Source: Rhizophagus irregularis (taxonomy: Eukaryota). Taken from it: 64,000 nt of DNA. The notes below the pieces were generated by a model. It worked only from the letters and a program-made list of their open reading frames with translations, was not told where the DNA came from and made no database searches. The DNA lies in NCBI RefSeq assembly GCF_026210795.1, contig NC_089436.1, positions 2,666,001-2,730,000 on the forward strand. The letters are read 5' to 3'. Of the stretch, positions 199-42,250 are shown in pieces; the first letter of the stretch is position 1; each line of letters begins with the position of its first letter. The translations under genes and the position numbers were made by a program.

Positions 199-3124
199 TT
201 AAAATAGTAAATTACCAAAAACAACTTTTCCTCCGAACACAGTTGCTAATACTTGTGTATCTACAATTTGCGATTCAGGTATTTCCATAATATCCCTATC
301 AATAACAATAAAATCCGCGTATTTTCCTATAGAAATGGATCCCATCTACAGGAAAAAATAATACGCTTAATTTCCAATTTTGTACAGTTTTTAACAGTGA
401 ATAATAAAATAAACTTACAATAGTTTCATTAAATGCTGCATAAGCTGCATCGATAGTAAATCCTTTCAATGCTTCTTGACGCGTTAATTTTTGTGAAGGA
501 AACCATCCGTTTTCTCCATGAGGCTACATTTTCAATGTGGCTTATAAACATTTGATTGAAGTATAAAAAGAATGATAAACATTTTCTTTTTTTACTTACA
601 GATTGCCCGTTAACCCATTTTCTTGTAATAGCAGCATAAATTCCCAAAAATGGATTTACAGATTCAACAGGAAAATCGGAAGAAAGCGGGAATGTCTTTA
701 CTCTAAAATTAATAAATATATTTATTAACTATAAACAAAATTAATGTGACTAAGTAATTTGATTTGTGGAAACAATACCCTGCTTCTATCAAACTTCTCC
801 ATGCATATGCACCTTTAATACGTTCACTACCTAGTCTTTGTTCAGCATATGCCATATCAGTAGTTGCTATCCAGAGTTATCAAGAGAAAAAAATTAATTC
901 AAAAATAACATGTAATTAACGAGAAATACGAAAGATTTCATATATTTACCATGAGTAGGTTGCATGGATGGTATAATATTTAATTTACCAATGCGTTTAA
1001 TATCTTCCAAAGTCTAGATTATCCCAAAGAATAAATCTTTAAAATTTATATTTAATACATTTTAGTCTATAAAAATATGTAGCTTACCAAAATCTGAGCG
1101 TGTTCAATTCTAAATCTAACTTTCTCTGCTAACTTTTTCATTTCATCATTCACTTCTTGTTCTGTTAATTTTTTATCACCATTTTGTGATAATACATATT
1201 CTCGAAAAGCTTTTTCATACGCATTAATTATAAGTTGATTTGCTTTATCACCTATACAATGCGTATTCACTTGAAATCCCTAATTCATTTTTTAACAACC
1301 ATGTATTCAATAATTTGAATATAAAATAGTATCAATGCATTTGGATGTAAAATTTACCTTATCGATCCATTTTTTGATTACAGGTGGTAACAATGTAGGA
1401 TCAGATATGAGAAGTCCTTGTTTCGTTGGATCATCTTTTATAAGCTAATGATATTTAGACAGTTTCAATATATATATATATATATATTTCAAATAAACTT
1501 ACCAGAATAAGGTTCTAATAATGCTAATTAAACGTAGTTTATGTTATAAAGTGCGTAAAGTGAACAAATCAATATTTAACACGTAGAAATGATAACACAA
1601 AATTAAATTGATCGATTGATTGATAATAACCTGCTCCCCAACTTCCCAAAGCACCGTCCATAAAGAATTTAACACTTCTAACAGTCAGCCTTCCATCACC
1701 TAATCCTTCAATTATTTCAACATAATCACCATCATACGTATTTTCTAAACTTTCTACCATTGCATAATTTCGGATATTAAATTCTTCCGGTTGTTCATTT
1801 ATAATTCTAAAAAAATGTTATATTATTAACAATAAAATATTATCTAAAATATTTATAAAAAATAAGAGAAATCATTGAGATATACTTTTTGAAGAATTCA
1901 AGTATATTTAATGGAATTCCTGCATCATGCACTCCAATTAATCCAAAAGAGTGCATTTTGGAAATTGCCGAACGTAATTGCTGTAATAATAATTGTTCAC
2001 TAGGCGAAGGCATAATTTTCTCTGATATTATAAAGAAAATAAATTTTTTTTATCAAATTAAATGACTTTTTACAATATTCTCTTCCCTGAATTGTTAAAT
2101 ACTCAACTAATTAATTGCATAGCATTATCAATAAAAATTCCAGTCAATTCACCGGTTTTCCTATCTCTTCCGATTTCTCCACCGTCAACAGTTTCAGGAA
2201 CCTTTACTAGCTTATCTAATATATTTTTATTCACTAATAAAGCGTGTCCATCAATACGTGATAAAGAAATTGAATATTTCTTGATTAGTGGATCACAATC
2301 TAAATCTTCCTGTTTATTGCCAAAGAACAAATTATAAATTTTACATATTTTTTATAAAAATTAAATTAATAAATTAGGACAAAAATATAATATACGCACA
2401 AAAGTTGGAAATGATTTTGATGTCCATTGTGTTTGATCCCATCCCCATCCTGTAATCCAATCTGTAGTAATATCTATTTCGGGGTGTGAATTGATGTATT
2501 CATGAATTCTTTCGCGTACCTCTATTAAGAAATCAAAAATTTAAATTTTTTATGTGATTATGATACAAAAGAGAAGTTCAAGGAGTTACCTTCAACGGAT
2601 CTTGTTCCCACGAGGTTCACCGATGTCAAAGATTCTCCTAAACCCATCAAATGCTATATAGACAAAATTTTATAACCAATAAATAATTATAATGCTCTAA
2701 AAAATCGATTTGATACATACAACATGTGCATCGATTAGTCCAGGTAAGATAGTACGACCTTGTAAATCAATACACTAAAGTAAATTCTTATTCTCATTAA
2801 ATTTTAAGACAAAAGAAAAAATCAAAGGAAATAGGAAAATTGTAAAAACGACTTACTTTCAACCCATTCCATTTTTTCATTAAATCAATTTTGGTGCCAA
2901 CATCTACAAATTTACCATTCGTTACTACAAATGATTCAATTTTTGGTAAAGTATCATCTGAAGTATAAATATTTGCATTATAGATAATGAAACCGTTTGA
3001 TGGTTCACTATTTAGAAAAAGTCACGTAAGTTTAGAAAATATGTATATATATGTATATAAAAATATAATTAATAGATGAGTGAAAGAAAATATCCTGAAT
3101 ATTAATTAACCTTGAATAACTCAT
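199..3124 (-). CDS. Amidohydrolase family 3 (YtcJ-like) metal-dependent hydrolase, many introns
   Basis: Collinear minus-strand exons give PGLIDAHV, DGHALLVN, GVHDAG, KFFMDGALGSWGA, HCIGDKAN, RFRIEHAQI, SMQPTH, SSDFPVE and GKYADFIVID. GT-AG introns lie between them. Stop at 199-201; likely ATG at 3124 (less certain). Confidence 0.9.
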
Positions 3125-4100: not shown

Positions 4101-5498
4101 TTAAATGATGTTAATAAACAATAATTTAATAACTAAGTCAAATAAAATATACTTACGTGAATCTGTCGAAATTAGTGGAGTATTCGAATAGCTTTTTGAA
4201 TACTTTCGATTTCGAAATTTATTTTCGTTTGATTTATTCATATACTTTAGACTTCGAAATATATTTTCGTTTGATTTATTTAGTATAATTTCGTCTGATT
4301 TATGTGAATAATATGTTTGAGCGTACAATGACTTTAATCTAGTTTCACAATGTTTTATTTGAAAATAAATTTTGCTGTGTTTTTATATTTTTCTCTATTC
4401 CATATATTTAAAATTTGATATAATTCTCTAGTAGTTGGTCTATTTTCAACTTTACCATCCCAACATTTAGTTATCAAGTCTGCAAGTAATTCTGGCGTGT
4501 CTTCGGAAATTGTTGGTCTAAGACCTTCATATATATGCATCGCTAATTTCTTATGATCATAAAGAATATTTTTATAAGGAGCTGTTTCAGATAAAAATTC
4601 ATTCATTATTATTCCAAATGAGTAAGTATCTGCTGCTTTCGTATATTTATGATCATGAAATACTTCTGGAGCTACGTAAGGTAATACTCCATAAATTTTT
4701 TCTTTATTTTCATTTTTTACTGATTTACACATTCCAAAATCACCTATATATGGTGTATTATTAAATAATATATTTCCTGGATGAAGGTCTCTATGAACTT
4801 TTTCGGCGTTATGAATATACAAAATTCCTTTTGAAATTTGTAATAAATGGTCAATTTTTAATCCATAGTCTACATAATTTACTTTTAAATAATCTTTCAA
4901 ATTTCCATCCTCGCAATATTCTAAAATCATTACGTAATCATTAGTCTTTGGATCTTGTGTTATTCCATAACATTGAATAATACTGCTAATATAAATCTCA
5001 AGATGAGATTTAACCTAAATATTAAAAAGTTTTTTTTAGTAAACACACAATCTGTAATTTAAGTACAAATTATTTATTTAACTACCTCATTTAAAAAATT
5101 TGTAATTATACCAGAAAAATTATCTAAAATTTTTAGTGCAACCTTTTCAGGAATCCTCTTCCAATTTTGATTTTCGATATCCCAATTGCAAATGTATCCA
5201 GGCCAGTCAGCCGTATAAATGCGACTAAAACCTCCTTTGGCAATATAATTAACATTTTTAAAATTTTCATAAGGTACCCATTCAAGACATTTTGTATAAT
5301 GTACAGTACGGCGTTAAGTTGCGATTGTTGAATTAATTCATCAATATTTTTGTTTTCGCTAGTCCAATTTTCAAAATTTTCCTTAAACCTTTTAGCGTTA
5401 CAAGATTGACACCATTCTTTTCCTGTCCCAAGTTCATTACATTCTCCACATATTCCATATACTTCCCTTCTTTTTTCTAAATTTTCCATATAAACCAT
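4101..5498 (-). pseudogene. TKL-type protein kinase of the expanded Glomeromycota family, frameshifted
   Basis: N-terminal YGICGECNE..WCQSCNAKRFKENF..NWTS; kinase motifs HRDLHPGN, DFG, YVAPE, ADTYSFG. Frameshift near 5300 (the EWVPYENF and AKGGF segments are in another frame) and probably another near 4360. Confidence 0.8.
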
Positions 5499-8366: not shown

Positions 8367-11300
8367 ATGGCTGATAATAATATTCAAAAAATCGGCAAAT
8401 TTGTTAAAAAAATAAAACAGGAGGTAAATAACATTTATTTGTTTATACAATATATGCTTAACTACAGTAATCATTTGTATTTATAATTTAACGTAAACTT
8501 CAGCAAAAAGATTACGGAATTACAGACAAAGGTAAAATATGCATATTCCACATGTGAATAAAACACTTCATATTTAACTTTATAACAAATAAAATTAATA
8601 AATTAATAGGTAGTGCTGATGATTGTTCTCTTCGAGCTTATTTGGAAAAAAATTTTACGAGTCTCACTTGGGAAGATAAATACGAATTAGCATACCAGAT
8701 AGTTTGCGCTGTATCGAATTTACATGAAAAAGGAATCGTGCATGGTGATTTGGTAAATTTATTTCATTAATAATTTAACAGTTAACAATTATTTATCTAT
8801 TTATATTCATTAATCTGCTATGTTATAATAGCACTCTGGCAATGTGCTAATCCATCAAAATACCGTCGAGTTGGCTGACTTTGGATTATCAAATAGAATG
8901 AAAAAGGTATCTGAACAACAAACGAGATTTGATACAGCTCTATACACTGATCCCAAAGGGTCTACTACACAACAATATTCATTAAATGAAAAGAATGATG
9001 TTTGCGGTATTGGCATGATTCTATGGGAAATATCAAGTGGACAACCACCATTTAAATTGGAATCATGTGATGGTAATTCGAACCTGGAAATTTTACAAGA
9101 TTATAGAGAAACAATTGTATCAGATACTCCTATTGATTATTCTAATCTTTTTATCGGTAAATATATATATACTTTTCAACTTTAATTTGCAATATTGTAT
9201 TTTTAAATTTATTTCATATATGCATCTATTATAGAGTGTTGGGATGGTGAACCAAACAATAGACCATCTATGAACCAAGTAGTTAATAAATTTGATAAAT
9301 TTAAAAACTACTTTTTAATTAAAAGAATGATTGATGAATTTGTTAGTCTTATTTTTAAGGAAGTAAATGAAGGGAAAGAAGAGAAAGTAAGAAAACAACA
9401 TGTTCTTAATTATATTGATGATCATGAAATAAACTCGCAAGAAATCTGTAATTGGCTTGCAAATAATCAAATTAATTCAAATTTTATTTATTTACTTGAG
9501 TATCTTAATTATCATGGAATAAAAACTTGTATCAATAAGCAAAAAGCATTTAAATTATATCAAAAAGCAGCAAATTTAGGAAATAATATAGCTCAATATA
9601 ATCTTGCTTTAATGTATAAAGAAGGAAAATGTGTTAATAAAAATGATGGTAAAGCTTTTGAATTGTTCAAAAAATCAGCAGAAGGAGAAAATTTAAGCGG
9701 AATAAATATGTTAGGATATTGTTATGAAAATGGAATTGGAACTGATACTAATATGAAAAAAGCATTTGAATTATATCACAAAGCAGCAAATTTGGGAAAC
9801 AATGTAGCTCAATATAATCTTGCTTTAATGTATAAAGAAGGAAAATATGTTGATAAAAATAATGGCAAAGCTTTTGAATTTTTTAAAAAATCAGCAAAAG
9901 AAGAAGATTTAAATGGAATAAATATGTTAGGATATTGCTATGAATATGGAATTGGAACCAATATTGACCTGCAGATAGCATTTGAATTATATCGAAAAGC
10001 TGCAAATTTAGGAAATAGTATAGCTCAATATAATCTTGCTTTCAGTTAATGTATAAAGAAGGAAAATGGGTTAATAAGTATGTTGGTAGAGCTTTTTGAA
10101 TTATTTAAAAAATCAGCAGAAGGGAAAAACTAAGCAGTATAAATATGTTAGGATATTGCTATGAAAATGGAATTGGAACGAATATTGACCTGCAAAAAGC
10201 ATTTAAATTATACGAGAAAGCAGCAAATTTAGGAAATAATATAGCTCAATATAATCTTGCTTTAATGTATAAAGAAGGAAAGTATGTTGATAAAAATATT
10301 AATAAAGCTTTTGAGTTGTTTGAAAAATCAGCAAAAGGAGAAAATTTGAATGGAATAAATATGTTAGGATATTGTTATGAATATGGAATTGGAACCAATA
10401 TTGACCTGCAGAAAGCATTTGAATTATATCAAAAAGCAGCAAATTTAGGGAATAACATAGCTCGATATAATTTTGCTTTAATGTATAAAGAAGGAAAATG
10501 TGTTAATAAAAATGATGGTAAAGCTTTTGAATTGTTTAAAAAATCAGCAGAAGGGGAAAATTTAAGCGGAATAAATATGTTGGGATATTGCTATGAAAAT
10601 GGAATTGGAACTGATATTAATATGAAAAAAGAATTTGAATTATATCACAAAACTGCAAATTTGGGAAATAATGCAGCTCAATATAATCTTGCTTTAATGT
10701 ATAAAGAAGGAAGATATGTTGATGAAAATTATGAAAGAGCTTTTGAATTTTTGAAAAAATCAGCAGAAGGGAAAAATTTAAGAGGAATAAATTTGTTAGG
10801 ATATTACTATGAAAATGGAATTGGAACCAATATTGACTTGCAAAAAGCATTTAAATTATATAAAAAAGCAGCAAATTTAGGAAATAATATAGCTCAATAT
10901 TAATGTATAATGAAGGAAAGTATATTGATAAAAATATTAATAAAGCCTTTGAGTTGTTTGAAAAATCAGCAAAAGGAGAAAATTTGAATGGAATAAATAT
11001 GTTAGGATATTGTTATGAATATGGAATTGAAACTAATATTAACCTGCAGAAATCATTTGAATTATATCAAAAATCTGCAAATTTAGGAAATAACATAGCT
11101 TAATATAATCTTGCTTTAATGTATAAAGAAGGAAAATATGTTAAAAAAAATAATGATAAAGCTTTTGAATTGTTTAATAAAACAGCAAAAGGAGAAGACT
11201 TAAATGGAATAAATATGTTAGGATATTGTTATGAATATGGAATTGGAACCAATATTAACCTGCAGAAATATTTGAATTATATTAAAAATTTGCAAAATTA

Positions 11301-12818
11301 CTAGGGAATAATACAGCTCAATATAATCTTGCTTTAATGTATAAAGAAGGAAAATATGTTGATAAAAATAATGATAAAGCTTTTGAATTATTTAAAAAAT
11401 CAGCAGAGGGAGAAGACTTAAATGGAATATATATGTTAGGATATTGTTATGAAAATGGAATTGGAACTGATATTGACCAATAAAAAGCATTTGAATTATA
11501 TCAAAAAGCTGCAAATTTAGGAAATAATGATAAAGCTTTTGAGTTGTTTGAAAAATTAGCAAAAGGAGAAAATTTAAATGGAATAAATATGATAGGATAT
11601 TGTTATGAATATGGAATTGGAACCAACATTAACCTGCAGAAAGCATTTGAATTATATCAAAAATCGGCAAATTTAGGAAATAATATAGCTCAATTTAATC
11701 TTGCTTTAATGTATGAAGAAGGAAAATATGTAAATGAAAATTATGAAAGAGCTTTTGAATTTTTAAAAAAATCAGCAGAAGGGAAAAATTTAAGAGGAAT
11801 AAATATGTTAGGATATTACTATGTAAATGGAATTGGAACCAATATTGACTTGCAAAAAGCATTTGAATTATATGAGAAAGCTGCTGATTTAGGAAATAAT
11901 ATATCTCAATATAATCTTGCTTTAATGTATAAAGAAGGAAAATATGTTGATAAAAATAATGGCAAAGCTTTCGAATTATTTAAAAAATCAGCCAATGGAG
12001 AAGATTTAAATGGAATAAATATGTTAGGATATTGTTATGAAAATGGAATTGGAACTGATATTAATGAACAAAAAGCATATGAATTATATCAAAAAGCTGC
12101 ATATTTAGGAAGTATTATAGCTCAATATAATCTTGCTTTAATGTATAAAGAAGGAAAATATGTTGATAAAAGTAATGATAAAGCTTTTGAATTATTTAAA
12201 AAATCAGCAGAGGGAGAAGACTTAAATGGAATAAATATGTTAGGATATTGTTATGAATATGGAATTGGAACCAATATTAACCTGCAAAAAGCATTTGAAT
12301 TATATGAGAAAGCTGCTGATTTAGGAAATAATATAGCTCAATATAATCTTGCTTTAATGTACAATGAAGGAAAGTATGTTGATAAAAATTACAATAAAGC
12401 TTTTGAATTATTTGAAAAATTAGCAAAGGGAGGAGATATATACGGAATATATATGTTAGGATATTGTTATGAAAATGGAAATGGAACTGATATTAATGGG
12501 AAAAAAGCATTTATACTATATGAAAAAGCAGCAAATTTAGGAAATAGTATAGCTCAATATAATGTTGCCCTAATGTATAAAGAAGGAAAATATATTTGTA
12601 AAAATTATGAACAAGCTTTTAGATTTTTTAGAAGATCAGCAGAAGGAGGATTTCTAAATGGAATAAATATGTTAAGATATTATTATGAAAACGGAATTGG
12701 AACTGATATTAATGAGCAAAAAGCATTTGAATTATATGAGAAAGCAGCAAATTTAGGAAATACTCATGGTAATCATCTAGATTATAAACGTACAAATGGT
12801 CACTCTGATTGTAATTAA
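8367..12818 (+). pseudogene. Kinase-like domain plus long Sel1-repeat gene, disrupted and 3'-truncated
   Basis: Short 5' exons, then HGDL/HSGN, LADFG, LWEISSGQPPF and CW..RP. Many Sel1 repeats follow (AQYNLALMYKEG alternating with GINMLGYCYENGIGT). Stops or frameshifts near 10047, 10130, 10900, 11101, 11270 and 11480. The last ~18 codons come from foreign sequence after ~12761. Confidence 0.85.
9540..12761 (+). repeat. Tandem array of ~216-nt (two Sel1 repeats, 72 aa) units
   Basis: 'gctcaatataatcttgctttaatgtataaagaagg' and 'ggaataaatatgttaggatattg' recur with ~216-nt period. Confidence 0.9.
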
Positions 12819-13742: not shown

Positions 13743-16187
13743 TAGGGATGTTAACAGTTTATGATTGGATGGTTCGAACCGCAGTTTGATCATAGGACCG
13801 GTTTCAGTTCAGTTCAAACGTCAAACCAAACCGAGACCGAACCGATAGAAACCGGTTTAGTGAACCGGTTTTAGATCGGTTCAATTAACGGTTACGTGTA
13901 TCTGCACGCGTAACTTTTTACAATAAAAGAATAACGGATTTTACATTCTTACATTTTTTTATATCACCTTGCATTATTACAACTATGTCGGGAGTTTTTG
14001 AAAATGACGATAATAATTTATCAGATGATTCCTTAGCATCTGATGATGAAAGAATTATAAATAAGAAATTGTCAGCAGATGTTTGGGAGTTTTTTCAAAA
14101 AATTCAAGATGAGGAAAGTTGGTTAATTACAAACTATAAGTGTATTTTGTGTGCAAAACTTTATTCACCTGGTAATCCAACATCTACACTTTGACGTCAT
14201 TTAACTAAAAAACATCCATCACATTATAAAAAACCTGAAACCCGCCAAACTACTTTACGTTTTAAACCTTACTCTCCATCAAAATCTAAACCTATCACAG
14301 ATTCTTTGGTTGATTTTGTTGCAACTGATTTGCAACCTTTTACCATTGTTGAAAATCCTGAATTCAAATTATTAATTAATAAATTGAATCCCCACTATAT
14401 TTTACCTTGCAGACAAACCTTAAAGGAAAAATTCATAGAAAATTATAAAATGAGAAAAAATGTGTTAATTAATGAAGTCTCACAAATTAACTCAAAAATC
14501 TCTCTTACTACTGATATTTGGACTTCAGAAATCTCAAAAGATTGTTATCTTGGAGTAACAATGCATTATATTAACAACAATTGGGAATTAAAAAATCTCT
14601 TACTTGATTTAATTCCTGTAAATGGTTCTCATACAGCTGGGTTAATTACTAGCAAGCTTTTACAAATTCTTGAAGAGTTTAGTATCAGTAATAATATTCT
14701 TGCATTAACTACAGACAATGGAAGCAACATGATAGCATGTGGTAATCAACTAGCAACTGAATTAGATCAGGAGTTTAATAATATGGCTTTTACTCATTAC
14801 AGATGTGCTGCACATATTATAAATTTAGCAGTAAAAGCAGGAATGAGTCATGTTGGAAATGAAATCAAAAAACTTCGTCAATTTGTTGTTAAAATCAAGA
14901 ATTCACCATTATTTTTGGATAAATTATCAGAAATTTGTACCCTTAAAAAAGTTAAATTTCTTAAACCAATTTTAGATATAGACATTCGCTGGAATTCCAC
15001 ATATTTTATGATTAATAGACAAATCTTAATGCAGGGTGTTTCAGAATTACTTGCAACAACAAATGTTGAAGAACTTGGAGATTTATTTCCAACAATATCT
15101 GAATGGCGACATATTAAGGTATTTTTTATTTTATAAATTATTATTTATTTTATTTTATAATTATATATTTATTAATTATTATTTTTTTTTTTACAGGAAT
15201 TAGCAAAGGTATTAGAACCTATGTATGAAGCAACCAATTTATTATCATCATCAAAAAATCCTACACAAGGTGATATAAGATTGGTTTTTAATGGAATGTT
15301 TAAAAAATTGGATCATTATCAAAGAGGAAATCACCATACACAAAAGGCAATAGCATCAGCAATTTGTAATAAATTGAAAGCCTATTGGGACAAATATTTG
15401 AATCAATCTTCCATTACTTCTTCAATATTAGATCCACACTACAAAACCACATTATTTAGTCATAATGATATAACTGAAATTATTAGTAAATTACAAGAAT
15501 TATATTTGTCATATTTACCCTTAAATAATCAAACCATACCATCAGCACCAGCACGATCATCTCGTGATTATTTTCTTAATTTACTTAATCCAAATAATAT
15601 TCGTCAAGAAGTATCGCATGATGAATTAGATCAATACTTAAATTCTCCAGTAGATAGTAATACAGGTTCTTTAATTTGGTGGAAAACTTATGAAAAGGAT
15701 TACCCAGTACTATCCCAAATAGCTAAGGATTATTTAACAATCCAAGCAACGTCGGTTCCATCAGAAAGGGCATTTTCAATTTCGGGATTAACTATTTCAA
15801 AAACTAGAAATAGGTTAGATCCTGAAACGGCAAGGGCAATTATATGCATGAAAAATTGGATATCAGAAAAAGAAAGAATGGAAAATTGAATCAATACTTG
15901 CAATATGTCTTTTTTTTTCCTTTTTTTTTACATTATGTGAAATTTTGTTGGTAATTTTTTTTCTTATAATAAAAAATTTTTTGATGATATACGATATATT
16001 TAAATTCATGATCTGCATTACACAATTTTGTATAAAATACTATAAATATCCAGTCTAAACTTCGGTCTAAACTTCAGTCCAAACTTCGGTTCAAACTCTG
16101 GTTCTAAACCTATAACGGTTCGGTTTTGTACTCAAACCACCAGTTTTTGGACCGAAAACCGGATGGACCGAACCGTTAACATCCCTA
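13743..16187 (+). mobile_element. hAT DNA transposon, 2445 bp
   Basis: 17-bp TIRs TAGGGATGTTAAC(A/G)GTT; perfect 8-bp TSD ATCATAAC at 13735-13742 and 16188-16195; subterminal AACCG/CGGTT repeats; internal transposase gene. Confidence 0.97.
13985..15889 (+). pseudogene. hAT transposase (BED finger, DDE, dimerisation domain) with one in-frame stop
   Basis: CILC..TL*RHLTKKH BED finger with TGA at 14192-14194; the frame continues to TTDIWTS, TTDNGSN, RCAAHIINL and IRWNST. Intron 15119-15196, then WWK and ATSVPSERAFS. Confidence 0.93.
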
Positions 16188-28385: not shown

Positions 28386-31300
28386 TTACTTGTTTAAAAG
28401 AATACTTAGATTCTCTTTAACGTCTAAATGTCCATTTTCTACAGCTTTGTTGTACCAATAAATAGAATTTTCTAGATTTTTGTTAGTCCCTTCACCTTGT
28501 TCATATAAATATGCAAGACTTTTTTGTGCAAAAATATTTCCTCTCTCTGCAGCTATCTTATATAAGCCAAATGCCTTTTCTTTATTCATATCAGTCCCAA
28601 AACCTTTTTCATAACAGTATCCAAGTTTATATTGAGCATCAACGAGTCCTAGATTAGCTGATTTTTTATAAAACTCATATGCTCTAACTTTATTTTCCCA
28701 AACACCCTTGCCTAATTCATAAAATTCACCTAATTTATATAATGCATATTTATTATCATTTTCTGCAGCTTTATGATACCAATAATTAACCTTGTCTAAA
28801 TCATTTACTATTTCTTCAAAGTTATCTTTGAAGTTACTGCCTGCTGCATCATTATATAATTCAAATCCCTTTTCTTTATTAATTTCAGTCCCAATTCCAT
28901 TTACATAACAATATCCAAGCTGAAACTTTGCAGTTATATGCCCATTTTCAGCTGATTTTTTATAAAGTTCAAATGCTTTAATTTCATTCTTATTTACGAA
29001 AGTTCCTAATTCATAATATTCACCTAAATTACATTGTGCTTCCTCACTTCCATCTTCTGCTGCTTTGTTAAACCAATAAAAAGCCTTTTTGAGACTCTTT
29101 TCAGTTCCTTCACCATTATCATATAAGAATCCCAAGCTATTTCGAGCGCAATTATGTCCTGCCTTAGCTGCTATACTATATAACTTAAATGCTTTTATTT
29201 TATTAGCTTCAGTGCCAATACCACTAAAATAACAATATCCAAGTTGATTTATAGCATTTAAATAACCTTGATTAGCCGATCTTTCATAATATTCAAAAGC
29301 TTTATTTTCATCTTTTTCAATACCTTCTCCATTTTCATATAAACATCCAAGACAAAATTGAGCTATATCATATCCTTTGTCTGCCACTATTTTGTAAAAT
29401 TCGAATGCTTTTATGTTATTAACCTCAGTTCCAATTCCATTATTATAACAATATCCAAGTTGGTATTGGGCATATAAATATTCTTGGTCTGCTGATTTTT
29501 TATAATATTCAAATGCTATTTTATTGTCTTTTTTAGTAACTTCACCATTTTGATATAACATTCCAAGATTATATTGTGCCACTTTATCATCCTTTTCAGC
29601 TATTATTTTATATAACTCAAATGCTTTTGTTTTGTCAACTTCAGTTCCAATTCCATTATTATAACAATATCCAAGTTGATATTGGGCATATAAATATTCT
29701 TGATCTGCTGATTTTTTATAATATTCAAATGCTATTTTATTGTCTTTTTCTACACCATTTCCATTTATATAACAATTACCTAAAATGTATTGTGCAACTT
29801 TATCACCTTTTTCAGCTGTTAAATTATATAATTTAAATGCTTTTATTTTGTCAATTTCAGTTCCAATTCCATTATCATAACAATATCCAAGTTGGTATTG
29901 GGCATATAAATATTCTTGATCTGCTGATTTTTTATAATATTCAAATGCTTTTTTTTCATCTTTCTCAACACCAATTTTATTCATATAACAATTACCTAAA
30001 TTGTATTGAGCCACTTTATCACCCTTTTCAGCTGTTATTTTATATAATTTAAATGCCTTTACTTTATTGACTTCAGTTCCAATTCCCTCATCATAACAAT
30101 ATCCAAGTTGAGATTGAGCATATAAATATCCTTGATCAGCTGATTTTTTATAATATTCAAATGCTTTTTTTTCATCTTTCTCAACACCAATTTTATTCAA
30201 ATAACAATTACCTAAATTGTATTGAGCCACTTTATCACCCTTTTCAGCTGTTATTTTATATAATTTAAATGCCTTTACTTTATTGACTTCAGTTCCAATT
30301 CCCTCATCATAACAATATCCAAGTTGAGATTGAGCATATAAGCATCCTTGATCAGCTGATTTTTTATAATATTCAAATGCTTTTTTTTCATCTTTCTCAA
30401 CACCAATTTCATTTAAATAACAATAGCCTAAATTATATAGTGCTGTTTCATTTCCATTTTCAGCTGCTATTTTATAATATTTATATGCTTTCATTTTATT
30501 GATTTCAGTTCCAATTCCCTCATCATAACAATACCCAAGATTGATATATGAATTAATATTTATAATTTTAGCAAATAATTTAGAATATTCAAAATCCTTT
30601 TTCTCATTTATCATAATTTTTTTATTACTGGATAAATATTTGATGTTCTTTTTAAAAGATTTTCTAAATAATTCAAATGCTTTTTTTCCATCTTTATTAA
30701 CTCCTTCTCCATGTATATAATATTGACCCAATAAATATTGTACATCTCCATATCCTTTTTCAGCTATTGTCTTGGCTAATTCAAATGCTTTTACTCTATC
30801 TATTTCAGTTCCATATCCAAAAGTATAACAATAAATAAGTTGTGATTGTGCATTTATGTATCCTCGTTCAGCAGAATTCTTATATAATTCAAAAGACTTT
30901 CTTAAATCTTTCATTACTCCATCTCCTAATTGATAACACCCACCTAAATTGAATTGTGCAAATTTACATCCATTTTCTGCTGCTTTTTGAAAATAGTAGA
31001 ATGATTTTTCATAATTTGTTTTTAATAATAATTTTCCAAAATAATAAAATCCAAGCTGACTTAAACTTTTATTAAATAATATTTTATAAAACTTGATTTT
31101 TTTAGATTTATCCATTTCAGCATATGATTTTATATTATAATTCCTTTTAAGGATATTTTTTGCTATAATATTTCCATTGTTTGTTGCTTTTTCGTACCAA
31201 CATTTAGCTTGAATTTTGTCTATTTTTGTTCCAATTCCATAATAATAACAATCGCCAAGTCGCAGTTGAGCATCAGAAATTTCTTGTTTTGCTAATGTTT

Positions 31301-33495
31301 CATAATATTTAAATGCTTTAATCTCATTTTTTTCAATTCCTTTTCCTAATCTATAACAATTTGCAAGATAAAGCCTTGCAATGACATTTCCATTTCTAGC
31401 TGCTTCTTTATAAAAATATACTGATTTTTTTTCGTTTTCTTCAGTTCCAATACCGAATTCATAACAATTTCCTAAATAAAATTGTCCAATAATACTTCCA
31501 TTTTCAACGGATTTTTGATACCAATAAAATGCCAAATAATAATTATTTTCAGCTCCATATCCATCATAATAACATTTAGCAAGATAAACTTGTGCAATTG
31601 AATAATTATCATTTGCCGCCTTTGAAAACAATTCAAATGCTTTGATGCTACTATTTTTTTCTAAAAGAATATTATAATAATAAAATAACCCAAAAAACCA
31701 AATATATTTTGATTGATTTTGATTTTTTAATAACCAATTTATAAAACGATCTGTAGCTTGATTTGTTTGTAATATTTGTTTGCTTATTAATTGTTGAATT
31801 TGTTCAAAAGTGATGCCTCTATCATGTTTTTCAATCAAAAATGCAATTAAACTATCGACATTGATAAATTCAATAAGATCTATCGACATTCTTGTTACTT
31901 GATCTGAGCTTGCACTTAATAAACTATTTTCATAATTTTGATTTTGGATTGTATTATTATTATTTATTACTGCTTTTATTGCTTCTGTAACGTCGGTAGA
32001 TGATGAGTAATAGTCTGAATTATCTATTAAAGATTCTTGTCTTACTTTTGAAGATTTTGGAATTTTATGTGAAATGAGTTGATCAGTTTCTTCACTATCA
32101 TTTATCTTTGATTCGCTATTTACACTTTCGTTTGATTTAGTGTTATATTCAACTAAACTTAATTCATTGTTTGACATTAACTCATTGTTTAAATCTATGG
32201 TTTCTTTGCTTAATTCTGAATTTGTTTCATATATTTCCGATAAATGATTTTCTTTTTTTTCAATAAAATTATTTATCATAGTTGTATTAATTTCCTCAAG
32301 AGACGTTATTGATCTAAGTGCTGAAACAATTTTCTGTATATTTGGTCGTTCATTTGGTTCATATTTCCAGCATTCTGATTAATTTAAATAAATAAAATTA
32401 GTAATTAAATTAAATATATAGACGCAAATATTTTAATCTATTACCTCTATATAAGTTACTATATTTAATAGGAGTTCCGTTGATAATTTCTTCTCTTTTA
32501 CCATTCAATATAGCTAAAACTAATCCTGCATCATGATCAAGTTCATAAAAAGGTTTATATCCACTTGAAATTTGCCATAGTAAAACTCCAATACTATATA
32601 CGTCAGATTTTTTATCTAATTTATAATTTTGATTTTCCAATTTCTTCGGATCTATGTAAGGCATTATACCAAGTATTTTTGATGTATTACTTGATGCTTC
32701 AGCTATTTTTTTTGATAACCCGAAATCTGCTAATTTAATGTTTTTCTGATGTACAAGTATATTATTTCCATGCTTTAATTACAGGATAAAATAATGATGT
32801 TAAAACGTGGTATATTACAATAAAAAAATAAGAATTTAAAAAATTTATATTACCAAATCACGATGAATAGTATCTTTTTCATGCAAAAATTCTATAGCAC
32901 TAGCAAGCTGTGACGCTAAGTAATATTTGTCATTCCAATCGAGCTTATTAAAATTCTCGTTTAAATATGTATTTAATGTACCGCTATCGGCGTATTCCAA
33001 TACAAAAGAATATTTTTGGATTGTGCCTAAATAAAACATTTCAACAATAATAAATAAATTTCTATTATTAAAGTTACAGTATATACAAGTATTAACGTAT
33101 TTATACTTACCAATTTCAACTCTTGTGATTCCATACAACCGTATAATATTTTCATGATAATTAACACTTCGGTGTAATTTTAACTAAAGTATATATAAGG
33201 GTATTACATAAGTATTTAATCGAAGTTTTAAATAAATATTGTTTAAAAGTATTAAATTTACCTCTTTTACAACTTCATTAAGAGTTTGTTTCTCATAATT
33301 AAAAGATTTCAAAGCGAAAATACGATTAGAATATTTTCGATTAACACGATAAACATTTCCATATGCGCCACTTCCTATCAGTTGAATATTTTTGAAGTCT
33401 GAATATTCATATAATTCGATATGTTCTTCGGTAATCGATTTCTCTAACCAGTCAATGTAATAATTTAAATCTTTTATTTTAGTATCTTTTGACAT
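28386..33495 (-). CDS. Protein kinase plus Sel1-repeat protein, apparently intact
   Basis: Exons give IGSGAYG, ALKSF, HRDL/HGNN, LADFG and KSDVYSIG. The long last exon (ORF 28386-32279, 1297 aa) carries more than 20 Sel1 repeats with no stops. Confidence 0.92.
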
Positions 33496-35948: not shown

Positions 35949-36706
35949 TTAGGGGCAGCAATTGACATGATAAAATTATTTTATAAACTTGAACTAATGA
36001 CATTGGAAATCATCACGTGTGCGTGATTGTGGATGGAATTCGACCAATACAGTCTCGTGCAACAAATAAAATTTACTATTAGCTTTTTCAGGACCAGAAT
36101 TATGATAATGTCAGCCAGTATCTAAAACTGGAGCTAATTTCCTGATTAGGATTATCACAAATTATCCATAAAAGGAAAGAACTACGTGACTATTTAGCGG
36201 GTGAATAACACTTGGATAACAAGTTCTGTACGGAAAGATTTGAAGGCAATTTAGCAATATCCGTACTTGAAGTTAAATCTGCTGCGGAAAAGGAGCGATC
36301 TGATGGTATTACATAAAGGGTAATCGGAAGTTCTAGTAATTTCCATTAATGAATCCAGTCAATTGAATACAGAAATCTATTTACCAACACAGCAGCACAT
36401 TTGAAAGAAAATGAGATTAATAAATTTTTTAATTAATAGGCCATGTGAAGAAATTAAGAAACGAAAAGCGATTTAAATATCAAATAGTAAGAGCAGATGT
36501 ATATTTGAAACACAATTCAGATCAAAGTTTTCGGGAGCTCTTTGGAGTACAATTCTCAGTTTAGATAGAAAAATGTTTCTATATCACTGATTCCCTATTC
36601 TATGCATTTGTCACCAATACATTAAAAATAAAAGTAGCAAACAATAAAAGGATTAAAGAACGAACTACTGAAGAACAATAACTGAAAGACGAAGTAAATA
36701 TGCTAT

Positions 36707-37596
36707 AGTAGTTGATTTGTGGGCGCTTTGGAGCCAAAATTGTTGTCGCTTATACGCCTACTTCCACCCTGCTAACTCCCCTTCTGCGGTGTGTTCTCAT
36801 TTTTGGAGCCAAAATTGTTGACGCTCATTTGCCTACATATCCCCCCGCTAACTCCTATTTTTGGCTCCATTTTTTTTCGTCTATATGCCTACATATCACA
36901 TGCTTACTCCCCTCCTGCGACTATTGATATACAGTATATAAAATGAAAGCATCTCTGCGATGATGCCACAGGCATCTCGCCAATTCAGGTCTTTCGCTTT
37001 TATATCATAATATCACTTTTATGCTATCATATTATATGAAACTCCCCTCTGAGGGGAGTTTCATTTTGTCCTATACGTTTTCACACTTATGCCTACATTT
37101 TGACCTATACGTTTACATTCTTATGCATACTCATACACGTCCACATTTACATGACCACACTTATGTGACTTCTTTCTGAGTTACAGGTCAATGTCCATTT
37201 GAATATGTAAGCTAGCTATAGAGATAACTCATTTAAAATAGTCCATCAGTATGCCTTGTCATTGGTTAGTTAAGGGGACAAAAGAATACTGTACCCGTTC
37301 TACTCAAAAAGAATACTGTGGAAAGCACGCATTTGCAATAAGACAGGGTACAACACCCCCAAACCATGCATATACTGCGGTAATGGTACCAACTCATTTT
37401 TACTGATTTGCATTCCATGCGGTCAGCAAAGGATACGTTCAAAGCTTTGGAGAGAAAAAAAAATGTCAATTACAATTAATTAAAAATTCAAAAATCATTT
37501 TTGTAATTGAATATATAGTACGGTTAATAGACGAAAAAATGAGTAGCTTATTAGGTTCTATCTTTGGTTCACTCGGCAATCTCTTTGGCTACTTCC
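36707..37596 (+). repeat. Left terminal inverted repeat (890 bp)
   Basis: Reverse complement of 54993-55887 apart from a few indels and SNPs (e.g. ~36835-36860, ~36930, ~37178); identity ends after CTCTTTGGCTACTTCC. Confidence 0.96.
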
Positions 37597-39415
37597 CGGA
37601 TAGTGGTATCCACTTGAACAATGCACCTTTGGCTGAACAAACCCTTGGTTATGAGGATAACAATAGTGACGCCTTTAGTGAATATGATACTACCACCTCT
37701 TTTTCTACCAGATGGTATTCTGCTAGTAGAGGTTTTCTTTGTTATAGAGAGAGTTCTAAGAGCAATGAAGTTGAATTTTTCAATGGGATAACTTATTGGA
37801 TAGGGCTAAAAAATGAGTTCTCAGAATTATCCCGTGATTGGTTTTTCATTAAAGTTGATAAAAACGAAACTCTAGAAGAAGCTCATAAAAGATATACTAA
37901 TGAATCAATCGCAATTTCGCAAAAAAGTCTTGGTCTTATCGATATGCGAAAAACTGGAACATATGCTGCTACCTCATTACGCCTATTTCAAGACGTAACA
38001 AATGGTCCAATTAAAAGTGCAAGGTTATCTGATGATGAAGAACTCTGGATTTCTAATGCAAGTATTGGCTCAATAATATGGGCAGAGCAGTATGAAGGTA
38101 ATGCGGCACAGTATGATATTAATGAATTTTACCCTTCAGTTTTACTACAAAAGGAAGCACAATGGCCAATAGGACCAGGTGAGTTCAAAATAATTACAAG
38201 TTTAAGTAATAATTTGCAGTATGGAATTTATCGAGTTCATATAGAAGGTCTGCCTAAAAAAAGTTCTTTACAATGCTCTCAATTATTCAGATTTAATCAA
38301 GAGGAGTACTATACGCACTATGATATAGAAATTGCGAGAAAGAATGGATTAGGGGTAGAATTAATTAATATTATGCCAAATGCTTATGTTTTTAATCCAG
38401 AGAATTTAAGAAGCGGCAAATTTTTATTTGAGAATTGGGCTGAAGAACTTATTCCTATAAAACGTCAAGAAGGAATTGCAGGTAAAGTTGCAAAAAATTT
38501 GTTAGTTTCATTATGGGCATTTTATGTGAAAAACCCACGGAAAAATGGAAAAGTAGGCCCTCATCGACGCATGAAGCCATTTATTTTAGCTCTTGGTCGT
38601 AAAACAATAACTAACATAATTAGACCTTTAAAAAATCATGTGAAACGTATCCATACAGACGGTTTTATTTTAACAAATACAATTGATAACAATTTACAGG
38701 TAGGACCAAATACAGGAGAGCTAAAATGTGAAAAAATTGGTCATGTCTTTATAAAAAATTCTATTAACGTTAGTTGGAGCAATACAGAAAAAGAAATTGT
38801 AAATTTTGTAGCTAAACAAGGTAAAAAAGAAAAAGAAATACGCATTCCTAATGAATTAGTTGTGTTAATTTTAGAATATTGTGAGAAATTGTATCCGCTT
38901 TTATTTGTAAATAAACATTGGAATGAAAATGCATGCTGGATGCTATGGAATAAAATAAAGTTAAATGGAATGACAGGTGTTAAATTCTTTTCAATTTTCG
39001 GAGTAGACATAAAACCATTACCATGTAAATATATTACATCTTTAAAAATTTGGGGACAAAAAAAAAGGATATAAATATCCTCTTTTCAGATATATGCAAG
39101 GCATGCCCTAATCTAAAAGATTTGTTCTTTATTGATTGTGGTCATCGACTAGTAAATAATGAAAGTATAGAAAAATCGGTAATAGAATGTAAAAACTTAA
39201 AATCCCTTGGATTAATAAAGCAAAAACGAGTAAGCTCTAACGTAATATTAAAAATTCCGATTTTATGTCCCAGTTTAGAAAAATTAGTAGTTATTCATTG
39301 TCCACGTATAAGAAAAGAAACTATTGAAAAAATGCGAATATTACACCCTTCACTTAAAATAGAGTGTGTTACTGATGAAGGACGCTCTCAGGAGGTAGTT
39401 CAACTCCATCATTAA
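37539..39415 (+). CDS. Reduced family-B DNA polymerase-like domain fused to F-box, with LRR in the -1 frame
   Basis: PolB motif A QYDINEFYPS, motif B AKNLLVSLW, motif C RIHTDGF and GELKCEK. F-box-like IPNELVVLILEYC..LLFVNKHW..MLW. LRRs ICKACPNLKDLFFIDC, ECKNLKSLGL and CPSLEKLVVIHC follow a shift at the A9 run 39058-39066. Confidence 0.7.
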
Positions 39416-39705
39416 CAAGTAAGAGTTCCTCCCTAACAAATCTACATTCAGGCCCGTCAAGTAACTTATAAAGGACCGGTTGATTTTTTTGTACACGAAC
39501 TTCCCAATGTTTATCAAAGCTTATTTATACACATACAATGTGTGAATTATTTTACAAAGTGCATTATTATATTTCTTTTTATTGCAAATTATAATAATAA
39601 AGCTAGTATTGTACTGATAATAATACCATAATACATAAAGTTAATTTATATTTAATGATTATTTACATTTTACAGACAACAAACAACCCAAATATTATTA
39701 GTAAA

Positions 39706-42250
39706 CTAAGATTGTAACGATATAGTACGATCTATAATATACTTAAAGTTGTTATTAGAGCTATCTACATATCGGGCATTCATTAGTACATATTCAAACA
39801 GATGGTCATGAAAAAAGTGTATAACATTAATTCTATCATTATCATCAGGTGGCCAATGAGGTCTATTCTTAGTTTTCTGAACTCCATAACCGTCTTCACA
39901 TGTAAAGTTTACTACCCAAATATCATCTGCAGATAGTTCTTTAGCATACTTAAGCACCCTATCAAAGTGTTCATTGAGTTCATTTCTTGTTGTAGTGGCC
40001 AAAAGCTCGAGAACAATTTTTTGACGCTTCGTTGTAATTACTATATCGCTATATGCGTCCTCAACATCTTCAATCAGATGCCACTGTCCAGTGACCTCGA
40101 AGCCAGCCCTCTTAACTAGCCAGTTAACCAGAATCCTGTTCAGCTCTGTGTCGTACACGCTTTCCCTAGGAACACATTTCTTTTTTAGACCATTCACATA
40201 CAATTCACGTGAAGATTTAAATGACCTTCCGAATGCATTAGTAATGATGTCCTTATCGAAGAACTGGACAGCATTCTGCAAAATTTTGAGAATATCCAGA
40301 GAATCATCATCTTTTTTGGGAATTGCATCTACCGGGGAAGTCATGTATACTTCAGGAATAACTCGTCGCCGAATCAGCTCATCTACAAGAGCAGATGACA
40401 TTTTAAACTCATTCTTGGTCTTTTCATTCCTGATTAACGCACTCTCAGCTACCAAGAATTGTATTAGGTTTCGTTCTTTTTCATCATAGATCTGCACATA
40501 ATCGAGGAATCCTAGGAATTTAGATCGAAGAAGACCAACAGCAGACTTGGCGTCCTCTTTTTTAAGCGAATCGATCATCTTATTAAAGGTAGAATATCCA
40601 AGTATCTCCACTTGCAATAGCGATAAAGCAAATTTCGACCAGATTGAAAAGTTAAGCTTCTTATCTTCGTCGTTAATGTCCTTAATTAAATTATTCTGGA
40701 TAGAACGTCCGCAAAGGCAGACAAGGCCGGCATGCCTGTCAAATAACAGAATAATAAGAAAATGAATTTTAGATTTGTTTCACGTGACTCTCCGGTCAGT
40801 TTAACTTACCCGCTTGTCCGTCTGTAGATATCTTCAATGATCTCTGGATCAATGATGAAATTGAAATCATTCGCAAATTCATTATATAGGAACTGCACTT
40901 GATCCAGCGTGAAATTTGGGTTTCGGTATGGCTCATTAACATTAAAGGGTGACGTAGTCATTTTCCTGATTTTAGATAAAGAATACTGAAGGTACCAATG
41001 GCGACAATAGAGTACATAGCATAGTTATATTTTGAGTTTTTCATGCCACGAAATGTTTCCAGACACGAGGACTTGACATCTTCATCCGCATCATACAGTT
41101 TATCGAACTCGTCAATGAAGAGAACAACATTATTATTCCAATTGTCTTTTTCAAATATTTCAAGAAAATCAGTACTGGAATTTATTCTCAAATCACTATA
41201 AGACCCGAAAACACTTGCAGATTTGAAATTAATGTTTCTACGAGCATCTCGCTTGATAGCAGCCCCTAACGTCCTCCAAAAACTTTCCTCAGTTTTTATG
41301 TTAATATGTTCAAAACTTACACTATTCCAAAGAGAAAAAGAAATAGGAGCGATCAGTTAGACTGCATTCAATGTAACCAGTTAACTTAAAAAGGAATCAG
41401 AACTTACTAAATGCAAACAAAGCCATTATCCTTTAACGGTTTCCTTATATGTTGCACCCGTGTAGACTTTCCGGATGCCCGTGCACCATATAACGCCACA
41501 TATTCACGTAACTTAATCATCTTAAGAAGCGATTCATTTCCCTCTGGTTCGGCATAGTAGATCCATTCACTCTCCTCTTGGAAGAGAGCACTATTAACTG
41601 CCCATCTTCTCCCTGTTGTAGCTGTAGAGAAAAAATTAGTAAGAATGATGTAATGAAATATATAACTAAGTATGATACCAAGTTTCTATCGTTTCTATCA
41701 CGCATTTCTTACTTTCTTCTTCCGTTAAAGGTCTTTTTCTTCCTAGTTCTAATGACAACGAGAAACATATTCAATATTATTAACAAATGTGACAACGAAA
41801 ATATATATTATTGTTTCGACTGCAGGTTTCTTCTTCAAGGGGTAAAAAATTGAGAGATACCTTACCAGTGGTGGTAGTTGCGATGACAGCAACGATGCTG
41901 ATGTTATCTTCCTCCTTAGGTTTATATCCATCTTGAAAATATTTTATAAACTTGCTTTGATTTTTCATAATCACACCTCCAAGGTTTTTAATATCCTCTT
42001 CAGTAAAATTATGGTTAAACATATTTTCGTCGACGTCAACTTGCCAAAGATTTAGCATGTCAGAACCTTCAAACATTCCATTATGTTTTATAAGATTCGC
42101 AAGTTGACCAACTTTTAGTTCTTCGAGTAAAATTTTTTTACCATCAATTTCAAAGAATTTTTTATCGTCATTGTCATTTTCATTTTTGTAAACTTCCACC
42201 TGGAAAACGTAACCATTATCTAGACGTAAACAATTGTACGATTCAGCCAT
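39706..42250 (-). CDS. Crinkler-like protein: CRN-type N-terminus, P-loop NTPase, PD-(D/E)xK-like domain; 4 introns, one frameshift
   Basis: Exon 1 has LNLWQVDV..ISIVAV; exon 3 (my translation) has YVALYGARASGKST; Walker B VVLFIDEFD; SPFN after a 1-nt deletion near 40962; GHAGLVCLCG; C-terminal PRESVYDTEL..YSDIVIT..IVLELLA. Confidence 0.8.

Follow-up and report, generated by a model that had tools for sequence, protein, structure and literature searches.

In the text of PMC11161782 at our disposal, mavirus's protein-primed DNA polymerase of family B (pPolB) is laid out as TP-vOTU-PALM (TP, terminal protein) and lacks most of the exonuclease domain, and the pPolB fusions known in print are with superfamily 1 (SF1) helicases. 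The available portions of a 2026 survey (PMC13215967, Virol Sin 2026) unite maviruses with a large fungal lineage devoid of structural genes as "pMVRE group 1" and list elements flanked by terminal inverted repeats (TIRs) from Rhizophagus irregularis (six), R. clarus, Glomus cerebriforme, Diversispora and Gigaspora. In the supplementary data of that survey, the counts of co-occurrence with DNA_pol_B_2 include F-box-like (4), F-box_SF (2), AMN1 (4), Crinkler (13) and Asp_protease_2 (6), and a table gives DNA_pol_B_2 together with Endonuclease_7 in only 1 element; "F-box" has 0 occurrences in the main text. The genomes of arbuscular mycorrhizal fungi also contain giant-virus-like sequences (PMC7017919). 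Herein, we consider a gene of R. irregularis that joins a mavirus-like polymerase core to an F-box and leucine-rich repeats (LRRs). It lies at the left end of a 19.2-kb element within the window, that is, the whole analysed stretch of 64,000 nt of AT-rich nuclear DNA (contig NC_089436.1, positions 2,666,001 to 2,730,000). In the searchable full-text literature, with paywalled papers and bioRxiv supplements outside its scope, we found no description of a polymerase-F-box/LRR fusion.

We regard it as rather probable that this is the terminal gene of an element bounded by TIRs and a target-site duplication (TSD), that it combines a mavirus-type pPolB core with an FBXL-type F-box/LRR cassette, and that this tail is likely to dock on the host Skp1-Cul1-F-box (SCF) machinery. 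The parts of the gene are listed below, with the evidence in brackets.

37539..39074, plus strand: main open reading frame (ORF) of 511 aa, with an N-terminal low-complexity part, the PolB-like core, the F-box and the first LRR strand
37716..38783, plus strand: confidently folded polymerase core (aa 60-415), consisting of a small beta domain, palm and fingers (AlphaFold2 (AF2), Foldseek)
38112..38135, plus strand: motif A, YDINEFYP, aa 192-199 (alignment)
38493..38516, plus strand: motif B, KNLLVSLW(A), of which KNLLVSLW is aa 319-326 (alignment)
38652..38666, plus strand: motif C, HTDGF, aa 372-376 (alignment)
38841..38960, plus strand: F-box, aa 435-474, IPNELVVLILEYC...LLFVNKHW (Pfam, module profile)
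39059..39415, plus strand, -1 frame: LRR part, KKKDINILFSDICKACPNLKDL... to the stop codon at 39413-39415 (ORF list, comparison with L007, AF2)

The main ORF opens with an ATG at 37539 and closes with a stop codon at 39072-39074, which is created by a frameshift; the annotated protein GLOIN_2v1772900 of R. irregularis DAOM 197198 is 99% identical to it. The -1 frame carrying the LRRs is open over 39029-39415. An earlier note on this DNA had described motifs A, B and C, an F-box-like continuation in the same frame and LRRs in the -1 frame, and this layout was borne out: all three motifs are present in the 511-aa ORF at the positions given above, the F-box-like match follows in frame, and the -1 frame joins the main one at a run of nine adenines (A9). 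The note had also proposed an element-encoded protein, which agrees with the borders of the surrounding unit.

36702..36706, no strand: left TSD, GCTAT (read directly)
36707..37596, plus strand: left TIR of about 890 nt, covering the upstream region, the relic of a zinc ribbon and codons 1-19 of the gene (inverted-repeat pairs, alignment A4)
54994..55887, minus strand: right TIR, repeating the zinc-ribbon relic and also codons 1-19, which here open a different gene (inverted-repeat pairs, alignment A4)
55888..55892, no strand: right TSD, GCTAT (read directly)

The stretch 36707-55887 (19,181 bp) is an insertion with TIRs of about 890 nt and a 5-bp target duplication, because its inverted repeats are flanked on both sides by GCTAT. 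Four inverted-repeat pairs (I19, I4, I13 and I15), 96-100% complementary, join 36707-37517 to 55076-55887, and pairwise alignment A4 stretches the identity to 37596 and about 54994. Over the inner approximately 600 nt, the two arms are only 1 substitution and 3 indels apart. Two "variants" in the read table (37356 and 37510) and a loose end at 37596 were rejected as alleles, since they stem from the other TIR arm. The first 58 nt of the 511-aa gene lie within the left TIR.

Such a position bears on the supposition that the Glomeromycota have domesticated (exapted) the gene as one of their own, with merely incidental repeats around it. Its conservation in Glomerales, Diversisporales and Entrophosporales with ratios of nonsynonymous to synonymous substitutions (dN/dS) below 1 would suit this idea. 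However, the gene starts inside the TIR of a TSD-flanked unit, it is multicopy in R. irregularis (P0003, P0006-P0009, P0011 and P0018), the same companion ORFs and an rve integrase accompany it in other contigs, and the available portions of PMC13215967 report elements with TIRs from this pPolB group for these very fungi. We therefore consider domestication very unlikely.

The polymerase part was recognised by profile as well as by fold. In the 511-aa ORF, the Pfam family DNA_pol_B_2 (PF03175) matches aa 134-287 with an E of 2.5e-6, its profile being aligned from position 170 to position 344 of 468. The score of 27.1 bits exceeds the gathering score of 25.8, and relatives score higher, with 33.7 bits for R. 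diaphanus P0004 and 53.9 bits for P0022. In the AF2 model, built on the annotated protein and 20 aligned relatives, the core (aa 60-415) has a pLDDT mostly of 80-95 and is predicted to adopt the palm and fingers fold of family B polymerases. A Foldseek comparison of this model with the PDB gave phi29 DNA polymerase for all of the top 9 matches (E 4.7e-11 to 5.6e-10, probability 1.0). Among the predicted viral structures of BFVD, the best match was a "DNA polymerase" from Harvfovirus (339 aa, E 3.5e-24), and Cafeteriavirus-dependent mavirus was represented by its polymerase of 617 aa (A0A1L4BK92, E 5.4e-22). The link to phi29 is structural only, because searches of PDB sequences gave no polymerase, including the one with the A1 profile; the lone phmmer match of P0001 there, to GH76, was dismissed as spurious. 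The ESM Atlas search returned no usable match.

With the core profile, the number of representative proteins retrieved was 2,935 at a cut-off of E<=1e-3 and 1,353 at E<=1e-30; most of them are 600-720 aa long and match up to their C-termini. For six relatives, the source is an IMG/VR contig (5.4-24.6 kb), and neighbouring genes were scanned on two of these contigs. Besides the polymerase, one (L001) encodes a Sputnik-type major capsid protein (MCP), a D5-like helicase, an rve integrase, a GIY-YIG protein and a lipase, and the other (L002) an rve-chromo integrase and an A32 ATPase. The long relatives bear an N-terminal NDCLxxC...HYT pattern. In all fungal-type sequences, alignment A1 lacks the TP-vOTU part, amounting to about 200-280 N-terminal residues with the NDCLxxC...HYT pattern included, and the interval from motif B to the RIKPF motif is shorter by about 45 deleted residues; our statements on TPR2 and the thumb rest on this alignment and on the Pfam profile ranges.

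To place the fungal sequences, we used a tree of 52 rows and 604 columns inferred by a quick IQ-TREE search with SH-aLRT support, from which the F-box columns fell out as being under the fill threshold. The 14 rows lacking TP and vOTU formed one clade (SH-aLRT 100). Its sister group consisted of the soil-metagenome TP-vOTU-PALM proteins L014, L015 and L017, with a support of 99 for the joint 17-row group, which was nested inside the mavirus-type family. A DUF5906 helicase is encoded with L015. By this topology, the core belongs to the mavirus-type pPolB, and soil TP-vOTU-PALM proteins are its nearest unfused relatives.

No 3'-5' exonuclease (Exo I-III) was detected, as the profile match contains nothing before position 170 and neither DxE nor YxxxD motifs occur upstream. 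This absence is an inherited trait of mavirus-type pPolB, since mavirus pPolB is itself described as devoid of most of the exonuclease domain (PMC11161782, in the text available). A PolB without exonuclease, as had been proposed from the sequence, is thus what we find, with PF03175 above its gathering score, structural matches to phi29 and mavirus polymerases and no alignment to the exonuclease part.

Motif A (YDINEFYPS) fits Dx2SLYPS with its catalytic Asp, and Asp193 is invariant in 20 of 20 aligned sequences. Lys319 of motif B and Thr-Asp-Gly of motif C (with Asp374) are likewise invariant or nearly so in these sequences, which are as little as 23% identical. In motif C (RIHTDG), His replaces the first Asp, while the second Asp is retained, so that the pattern YxDTDS with its two Asp residues is not found. 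Among 146 representatives of the family, however, motif C reads HTDG in 97, HTDS in 27 and another xTD[GS] in 12, with 10 unmatched by the pattern, and none of the 146 has Asp at the first position. Since HTDG or HTDS is found in 124 of the 146, His in motif C is the norm of the mavirus-type family and no sign of decay, and the description of motif C as degenerate in the earlier note does not hold in the sense of decay. Motif B is canonically Kx3NSxYG. In KNLLVSLWA the Lys is retained, whereas Asn is replaced by Val, Tyr by Trp and Gly by Ala, so that the canonical pattern is lost. The Asn to Val change occurs in all fungal-type copies, as against Asn in 120 of the 146 representatives, and Gly to Ala is found in this copy alone. 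The "degenerate" motifs turned out to be traits of the lineage instead of decay.

These residues can be read in favour of the core being the active replicase of the element, a low-fidelity polymerase in the manner of mavirus, with the F-box/LRR tail as an added host-manipulation module. Asp193 and Lys319 are (near-)invariant, as is TDG in motif C, dN/dS of the core is 0.23-0.33, and HTDG is the norm of a family predicted to be active, according to the available text of PMC11161782. In addition, the accessible data of PMC13215967 pair DNA_pol_B_2 with Endonuclease_7 in 1 published element, so that most such elements are probably without a second polymerase. On the other hand, the fungal protein no longer has the TP and vOTU domains that protein priming requires, nor the approximately 45 aa after motif B, and Val stands for the Asn of motif B in every fungal-type copy. 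Moreover, the Pfam alignment of the best-matching relative ends at position 416 of 468, while that of a second, canonical pPolB in the same element (see below) reaches 464. Lacking both a terminal protein and a TPR2-like stretch, and with its motif B altered, the core is unlikely to be a self-sufficient replicase, and an active replicase appears to us possible, though doubtful.

The tail is an FBXL-type F-box/LRR cassette, because profile matches, the structural matches of the module of L008 and the above-threshold F-boxes of orthologs all point the same way. In the window copy itself, F-box-like (PF12937) matches aa 435-474 with an E of 0.012 and 15.9 bits, under the gathering score of 24.3, but P0013, P0015, P0017, L008, L009 and P0191 exceed this score with 27.5-30.5 bits. 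A profile of the C-terminal module built from five Glomeromycota proteins matched FBXL2 (E 9.6e-15), FBXL17 (2e-13), FBXL5 (2e-4) and SKP2 (8e-4); the alignment with FBXL2 begins in the F-box and runs through the repeats. Modelled with AF2, the module of the intact soil ortholog L008 has a mean pLDDT of 78.7 and shows helices followed by 5-6 beta-alpha repeats, for which the best Foldseek matches in the PDB were SKP2, FBXL17, FBXL2, KDM2A and TIR1 (E 5e-5 to 6e-4). The LRR part of the window reaches a pLDDT of 83-93 and is 54% identical to the in-frame ORF of L007. The LRRs directly follow the F-box in one polypeptide in P0010, P0013, P0017, L007, L008 and L009, though not in the window copy.

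The fusion itself is best seen in L008 (positions 13-1914), a single unbroken ORF of 634 aa in which both F-box-like (30.5 bits) and DNA_pol_B_2 (29.9 bits) exceed their thresholds; the junction is also continuous in P0010, P0013, P0017, L009 and L007. In the first homology search, all 16 named matches were from Glomeromycota. A metagenome scan with a single protein as the query gave no match, and the same scan with alignment A5 as the query gave 23 loci. A word-based search with the C-terminal module found P0010 and P0003 only, and P0191, which is probably a merged model, was all that the "longer" search yielded. Taken together, the fused form is present in Rhizophagus and Glomus (Glomerales), Diversispora (Diversisporales) and Entrophospora (Entrophosporales), as well as in soil metagenome contigs, and it forms a single unbroken ORF in G. 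cerebriforme, Diversispora, Entrophospora and soil contigs. Two proteins without an F-box, P0018 and L012, fall within the clade lacking TP and vOTU, and the simplest history to be read from the tree would be one gain of the F-box and one loss.

Pairwise dN/dS values (NG86, unsaturated dS, pairs from metagenome contigs) were 0.33 for the core (L008-L011, 334 codons), 0.23 for the core end (109 codons) and 0.36-0.45 for F-box plus LRR in three pairs. Between the window and L007, they were 0.29 for the core end with the F-box and 0.32 for the LRRs. Both halves are thus under purifying selection. With values of about 0.2-0.45 for both halves, a single clade and unbroken ORFs in three orders of Glomeromycota and in soil contigs, where the two parts are therefore not always separate genes, the suggestion of a recent chimera, which the earlier note had kept as an alternative, can be set aside. 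It is an old fusion instead, and one conserved among arbuscular mycorrhizal fungi.

Unlike these orthologs, the window copy is interrupted between the F-box and the repeats.

39058..39066, plus strand: A9 run, the site of the frame break (codon arithmetic, contig coverage)
39026..39089, plus strand: 64-nt GT..AG "intron" of the public gene model (P0003 compared with P0004, P0010, L007 and L008)

Codons start at 39057+3k in the main frame and at 39056+3k in the LRR frame, and a run of A10 or A7 would restore continuity. The A9 run is covered without gaps by contigs of seven runs (X1, X9, X12, X14, X3, X16 and X17), four of which were flagged as possible assembly sources, and it is a property of the DNA rather than an assembly slip. 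Therefore, the DNA of this copy encodes the core and the F-box without the LRRs. In contrast, the R. diaphanus ortholog (...KIWGQKEKDINILFSDICKACPNLK...) is unbroken across the junction, as are the G. cerebriforme ortholog and the metagenome ORFs L007, L008 and L009. The annotated intron excises residues that are coding in these very orthologs, and for this reason it is most likely an annotation device bridging the frameshift; its joint was found in no contig (none of the runs is on record as RNA, and X15-X17 are guessed to be RNA). The public model of GLOIN_2v1772900 can thus be corrected, as its intron appears to mask a frameshift. Contigs of X15, a run whose kind is a guess only, have one A fewer at 39058 (in A9) and at 38256 (in an A7 run inside the core) and zero substitutions. 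We rejected these contractions as a rescue of the frame, since A8 is still out of frame and the change at 38256 would break the core.

It might be thought that A9 is a site of programmed slippage, either -1 ribosomal or transcriptional, that yields a short protein of core and F-box and a long one with the LRRs. A -1 slip on A_AAA_AAA would give GQKKKDINILF..., equal in length to GQKEKDINILF... of R. diaphanus, and the two products would differ exactly by the substrate-binding LRRs. Nevertheless, no stable RNA structure was predicted downstream of the run (z -0.44; 61 of 200 shuffles fold equally well), A9 runs are frequent (78 matches over the window), the orthologs have no run of this type and are in frame, and the A8 variant of X15 also fails to restore the frame. 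Programmed slippage is, in our opinion, very unlikely.

A more serious proposal is that this copy is a decaying pseudogene, that most R. irregularis copies are dead endogenous virophage-like remnants, and that the gene model is an artefact. The A9 frameshift in the contigs of seven runs and the intron cutting out ortholog-coding residues accord with it, as do the absence of an integrase from the element, the several short R. irregularis models (homologs of 322-478 aa), the frameshifts of L011 and L016, and the Gly to Ala change of motif B that is unique to this copy. A further sign of decay lies upstream in the TIRs.

37251..37480, plus strand: frameshifted N-terminal zinc-ribbon exon relic, MPCHWLVKGTKEYC... 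/ ...CIYCGNGTNS...CIPCGQ (ORFs compared with P0018)

This zinc ribbon is intact as the N-terminus of the paralog P0018, while in the element it is frameshifted in both TIR arms, its C-run being C5 in the left arm and C4 in the right one and out of frame in either. Against the pseudogene, the 511-aa frame is otherwise open; a truncated core-plus-F-box product is still encoded; the near-identity of the inner 600 nt of the TIRs suggests a young insertion or ongoing homogenisation; dN/dS between the window and L007 is 0.29-0.32; and the proposal concerns only this copy, leaving the conserved family unexplained. We give slightly less than an even chance to this proposal and to the copy being functionally dead. 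Within the fused family as we read it, the window copy is most likely a recently damaged one with a real frameshift in A9.

As for the right TIR arm, its zinc-ribbon relic is located at 55110-55350. The ORF at the right end (54517-55048, minus strand) shares its first 19 codons (MSSLLGSIFGSLGNLFGYF) with the fused gene, as the TIR extends into the coding sequence, and its acidic continuation is nearer to the N-terminus of R. diaphanus P0004 than the left-end gene is.

Between its ends, the element carries the following genes.

39706-41685, minus strand: AAA-like gene, cargo of the element, with multiple exons over 39706-42334
46124-47662, minus strand: second cargo gene, encoding the N-terminal domain of Crinkler effectors (PF20147, E 1.4e-28; Pfam)
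48022..48594, plus strand: retropepsin-like ORF (LIDTSV), a conserved companion (homologs in L008 and L016; Pfam aspartyl-protease matches weak)
48797..49228, minus strand: ORF of 143 aa, the second conserved companion (58% identical in L009, 32% in L020)
49325..53226, minus strand: second, canonical pPolB in two overlapping frames, with the break at 52549-52558 (motifs, Pfam)

Homologs of the retropepsin-like ORF, 52% identical, directly follow the fused gene in L008 and L016, and the two companion ORFs have the terminal motif IYP[KE]GTK in common. Beside the fused gene of L009 stands an rve integrase (E 5.5e-8), and near that of L008 there are two further small F-box ORFs, at 2610-2975 (minus strand, E 2e-7) and 4197-4595 (plus strand, E 1.9e-5). 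By contrast, Pfam searches of the ORFs of at least 55 aa in the window element found no rve integrase and no match to a capsid module (double jelly-roll MCP, penton, A32 ATPase or protease). The canonical pPolB has exonuclease motifs, DANNLYGWAM, KLMNNAVFGKT, YTDTDS and an Endonuclease VII insert, with a vOTU-like NNDEFCFHEC upstream; DNA_pol_B_2 matches its C-terminal 624 aa from position 115 to position 464 of the 468 in the profile (E 9.2e-15), but is not matched by the full 1077-aa ORF. We considered whether this polymerase makes the fused gene redundant in all elements of the kind and rejected the idea: the combination of DNA_pol_B_2 with Endonuclease_7 is known from 1 published element in the accessible data, and the case is treated here as special to this copy.

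Outside the element, Sel1-repeat genes flank it at 28386-32378 (minus strand), 60646-63087 (plus strand), 9207-12818 (plus strand) and 57386-58582 (minus strand), with up to 25 repeats (E 5e-227), and produce long imperfect inverted repeats across it. The window also contains a remnant of a hAT transposase at 14195-15889 (plus strand; dimerisation domain, E 7.6e-26) and a protein-kinase fragment at 4355-5014 (minus strand).

Several of these results weigh against the reading of the gene as a mavirus-type polymerase core with an SCF-docking tail. The element is without an integrase or capsid gene of its own and has a second, canonical pPolB, which blurs the role of the fused gene. The F-box of the window copy stays under the Pfam threshold (E 0.012) and has a pLDDT of 29-52 in the full-length model, and the frameshift of this copy is present in the contigs of all seven runs that cover A9. 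The changes of motif B (Asn throughout the clade, Gly here) and the loss of the TPR2-like stretch and of the terminal-protein domain make a role as replicase doubtful, while the invariant catalytic Asp residues speak against a purely structural one. The tree comes from a quick search with SH-aLRT support only, and the dN/dS pairs are metagenome contigs, of which L011 and L016 are frameshifted, a circumstance that biases the values upward.

With these points in mind, we envisage the following mechanism. The F-box would bind host Skp1 and bring in Cul1-Rbx1, and the target of ubiquitination would be selected by the LRRs, by the polymerase-fold domain or by the two together. Candidate targets are host or rival-virus proteins at the DNA of the element, and the purpose may be counter-defence or maintenance of the element. 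The core would be a low-processivity polymerase at best and more probably a module that binds DNA or primer ends. We infer the SCF-adaptor function of the fused protein; its link to ubiquitin is plausible, and the association with ubiquitination and counter-defence, already raised in the earlier note, is one that we likewise infer. It is tempting to go further and to suppose that, in a lineage of endogenous virophage-like elements of arbuscular mycorrhizal fungi, the replicase was converted into a ubiquitin-ligase adaptor, in which the polymerase fold recognises DNA ends or replication complexes, whether foreign or of the element itself, and the tail brings the SCF complex to them. Such a conversion seems improbable to us. 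If true, it would represent an E3 receptor of viral origin by which proteins on the replicating DNA of mobile elements or giant viruses are tagged for degradation, and a new kind of counter-defence or of virophage-style protection of the host.

Neither polymerases of mavirus type nor F-box/LRR adaptors are new in themselves, and a catalogue of the fungal element family appeared in 2026; the union of polymerase and adaptor in one conserved polypeptide is undescribed in searchable papers. Should a polymerase-SCF bridge prove true, it would be a new way for an element derived from virophages or Polintons to manipulate the ubiquitin system of its host, and it would give a handle on the role of capsid-less, Crinkler-carrying elements in arbuscular mycorrhizal fungi.

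Compared with known systems, the fungal protein is closest to mavirus-type pPolB (A0A1L4BK92). It has the same palm and fingers fold, lacks the exonuclease and has H-T-D-G as motif C, and its clade is nested in that family, whose members include relatives in virophage-like contigs. Unlike mavirus pPolB, it is devoid of TP, vOTU and about 45 residues after motif B, has Val in place of Asn in this motif and has gained an F-box and LRRs. With cellular FBXL proteins (FBXL2, FBXL17 and SKP2), it shares an F-box followed immediately by short cysteine-containing LRRs. However, the fungal module has about 5-6 repeats and is C-terminal to a polymerase fold, whereas the cellular F-box is at the N-terminus, and binding of Skp1 is here a prediction. 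Viral F-box proteins that hijack SCF complexes, such as the poxvirus ankyrin/PRANC proteins, nanovirus Clink and polerovirus P0, offer a functional analogy only: there too, a viral or mobile genome encodes an F-box to redirect host ubiquitination, but these proteins are not known to be fused to a polymerase fold.

At the level of whole elements, the fungal lineage of pMVRE group 1, as given in the available portions of PMC13215967, has TIRs and a mavirus-related pPolB and is without structural genes, just like the element described here, which was left unmatched to the six R. irregularis elements reported there since those derive from another assembly. The single-polypeptide fusion, the loss of TP-vOTU and the selection acting on the gene are not described in those portions. 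Finally, the Tlr1-like pPolB-S1H proteins of polinton-like viruses and transpovirons, as far as the texts available to us describe them (PMC11161782, PMC5499653), likewise combine an exonuclease-less palm with a C-terminal module in a capsid-less or reduced element. Their module is a replication-related SF1 helicase and their TP-vOTU part is kept, whereas in the fungal protein the palm is followed by a cassette of the ubiquitin-ligase adaptor type and TP-vOTU is lost.

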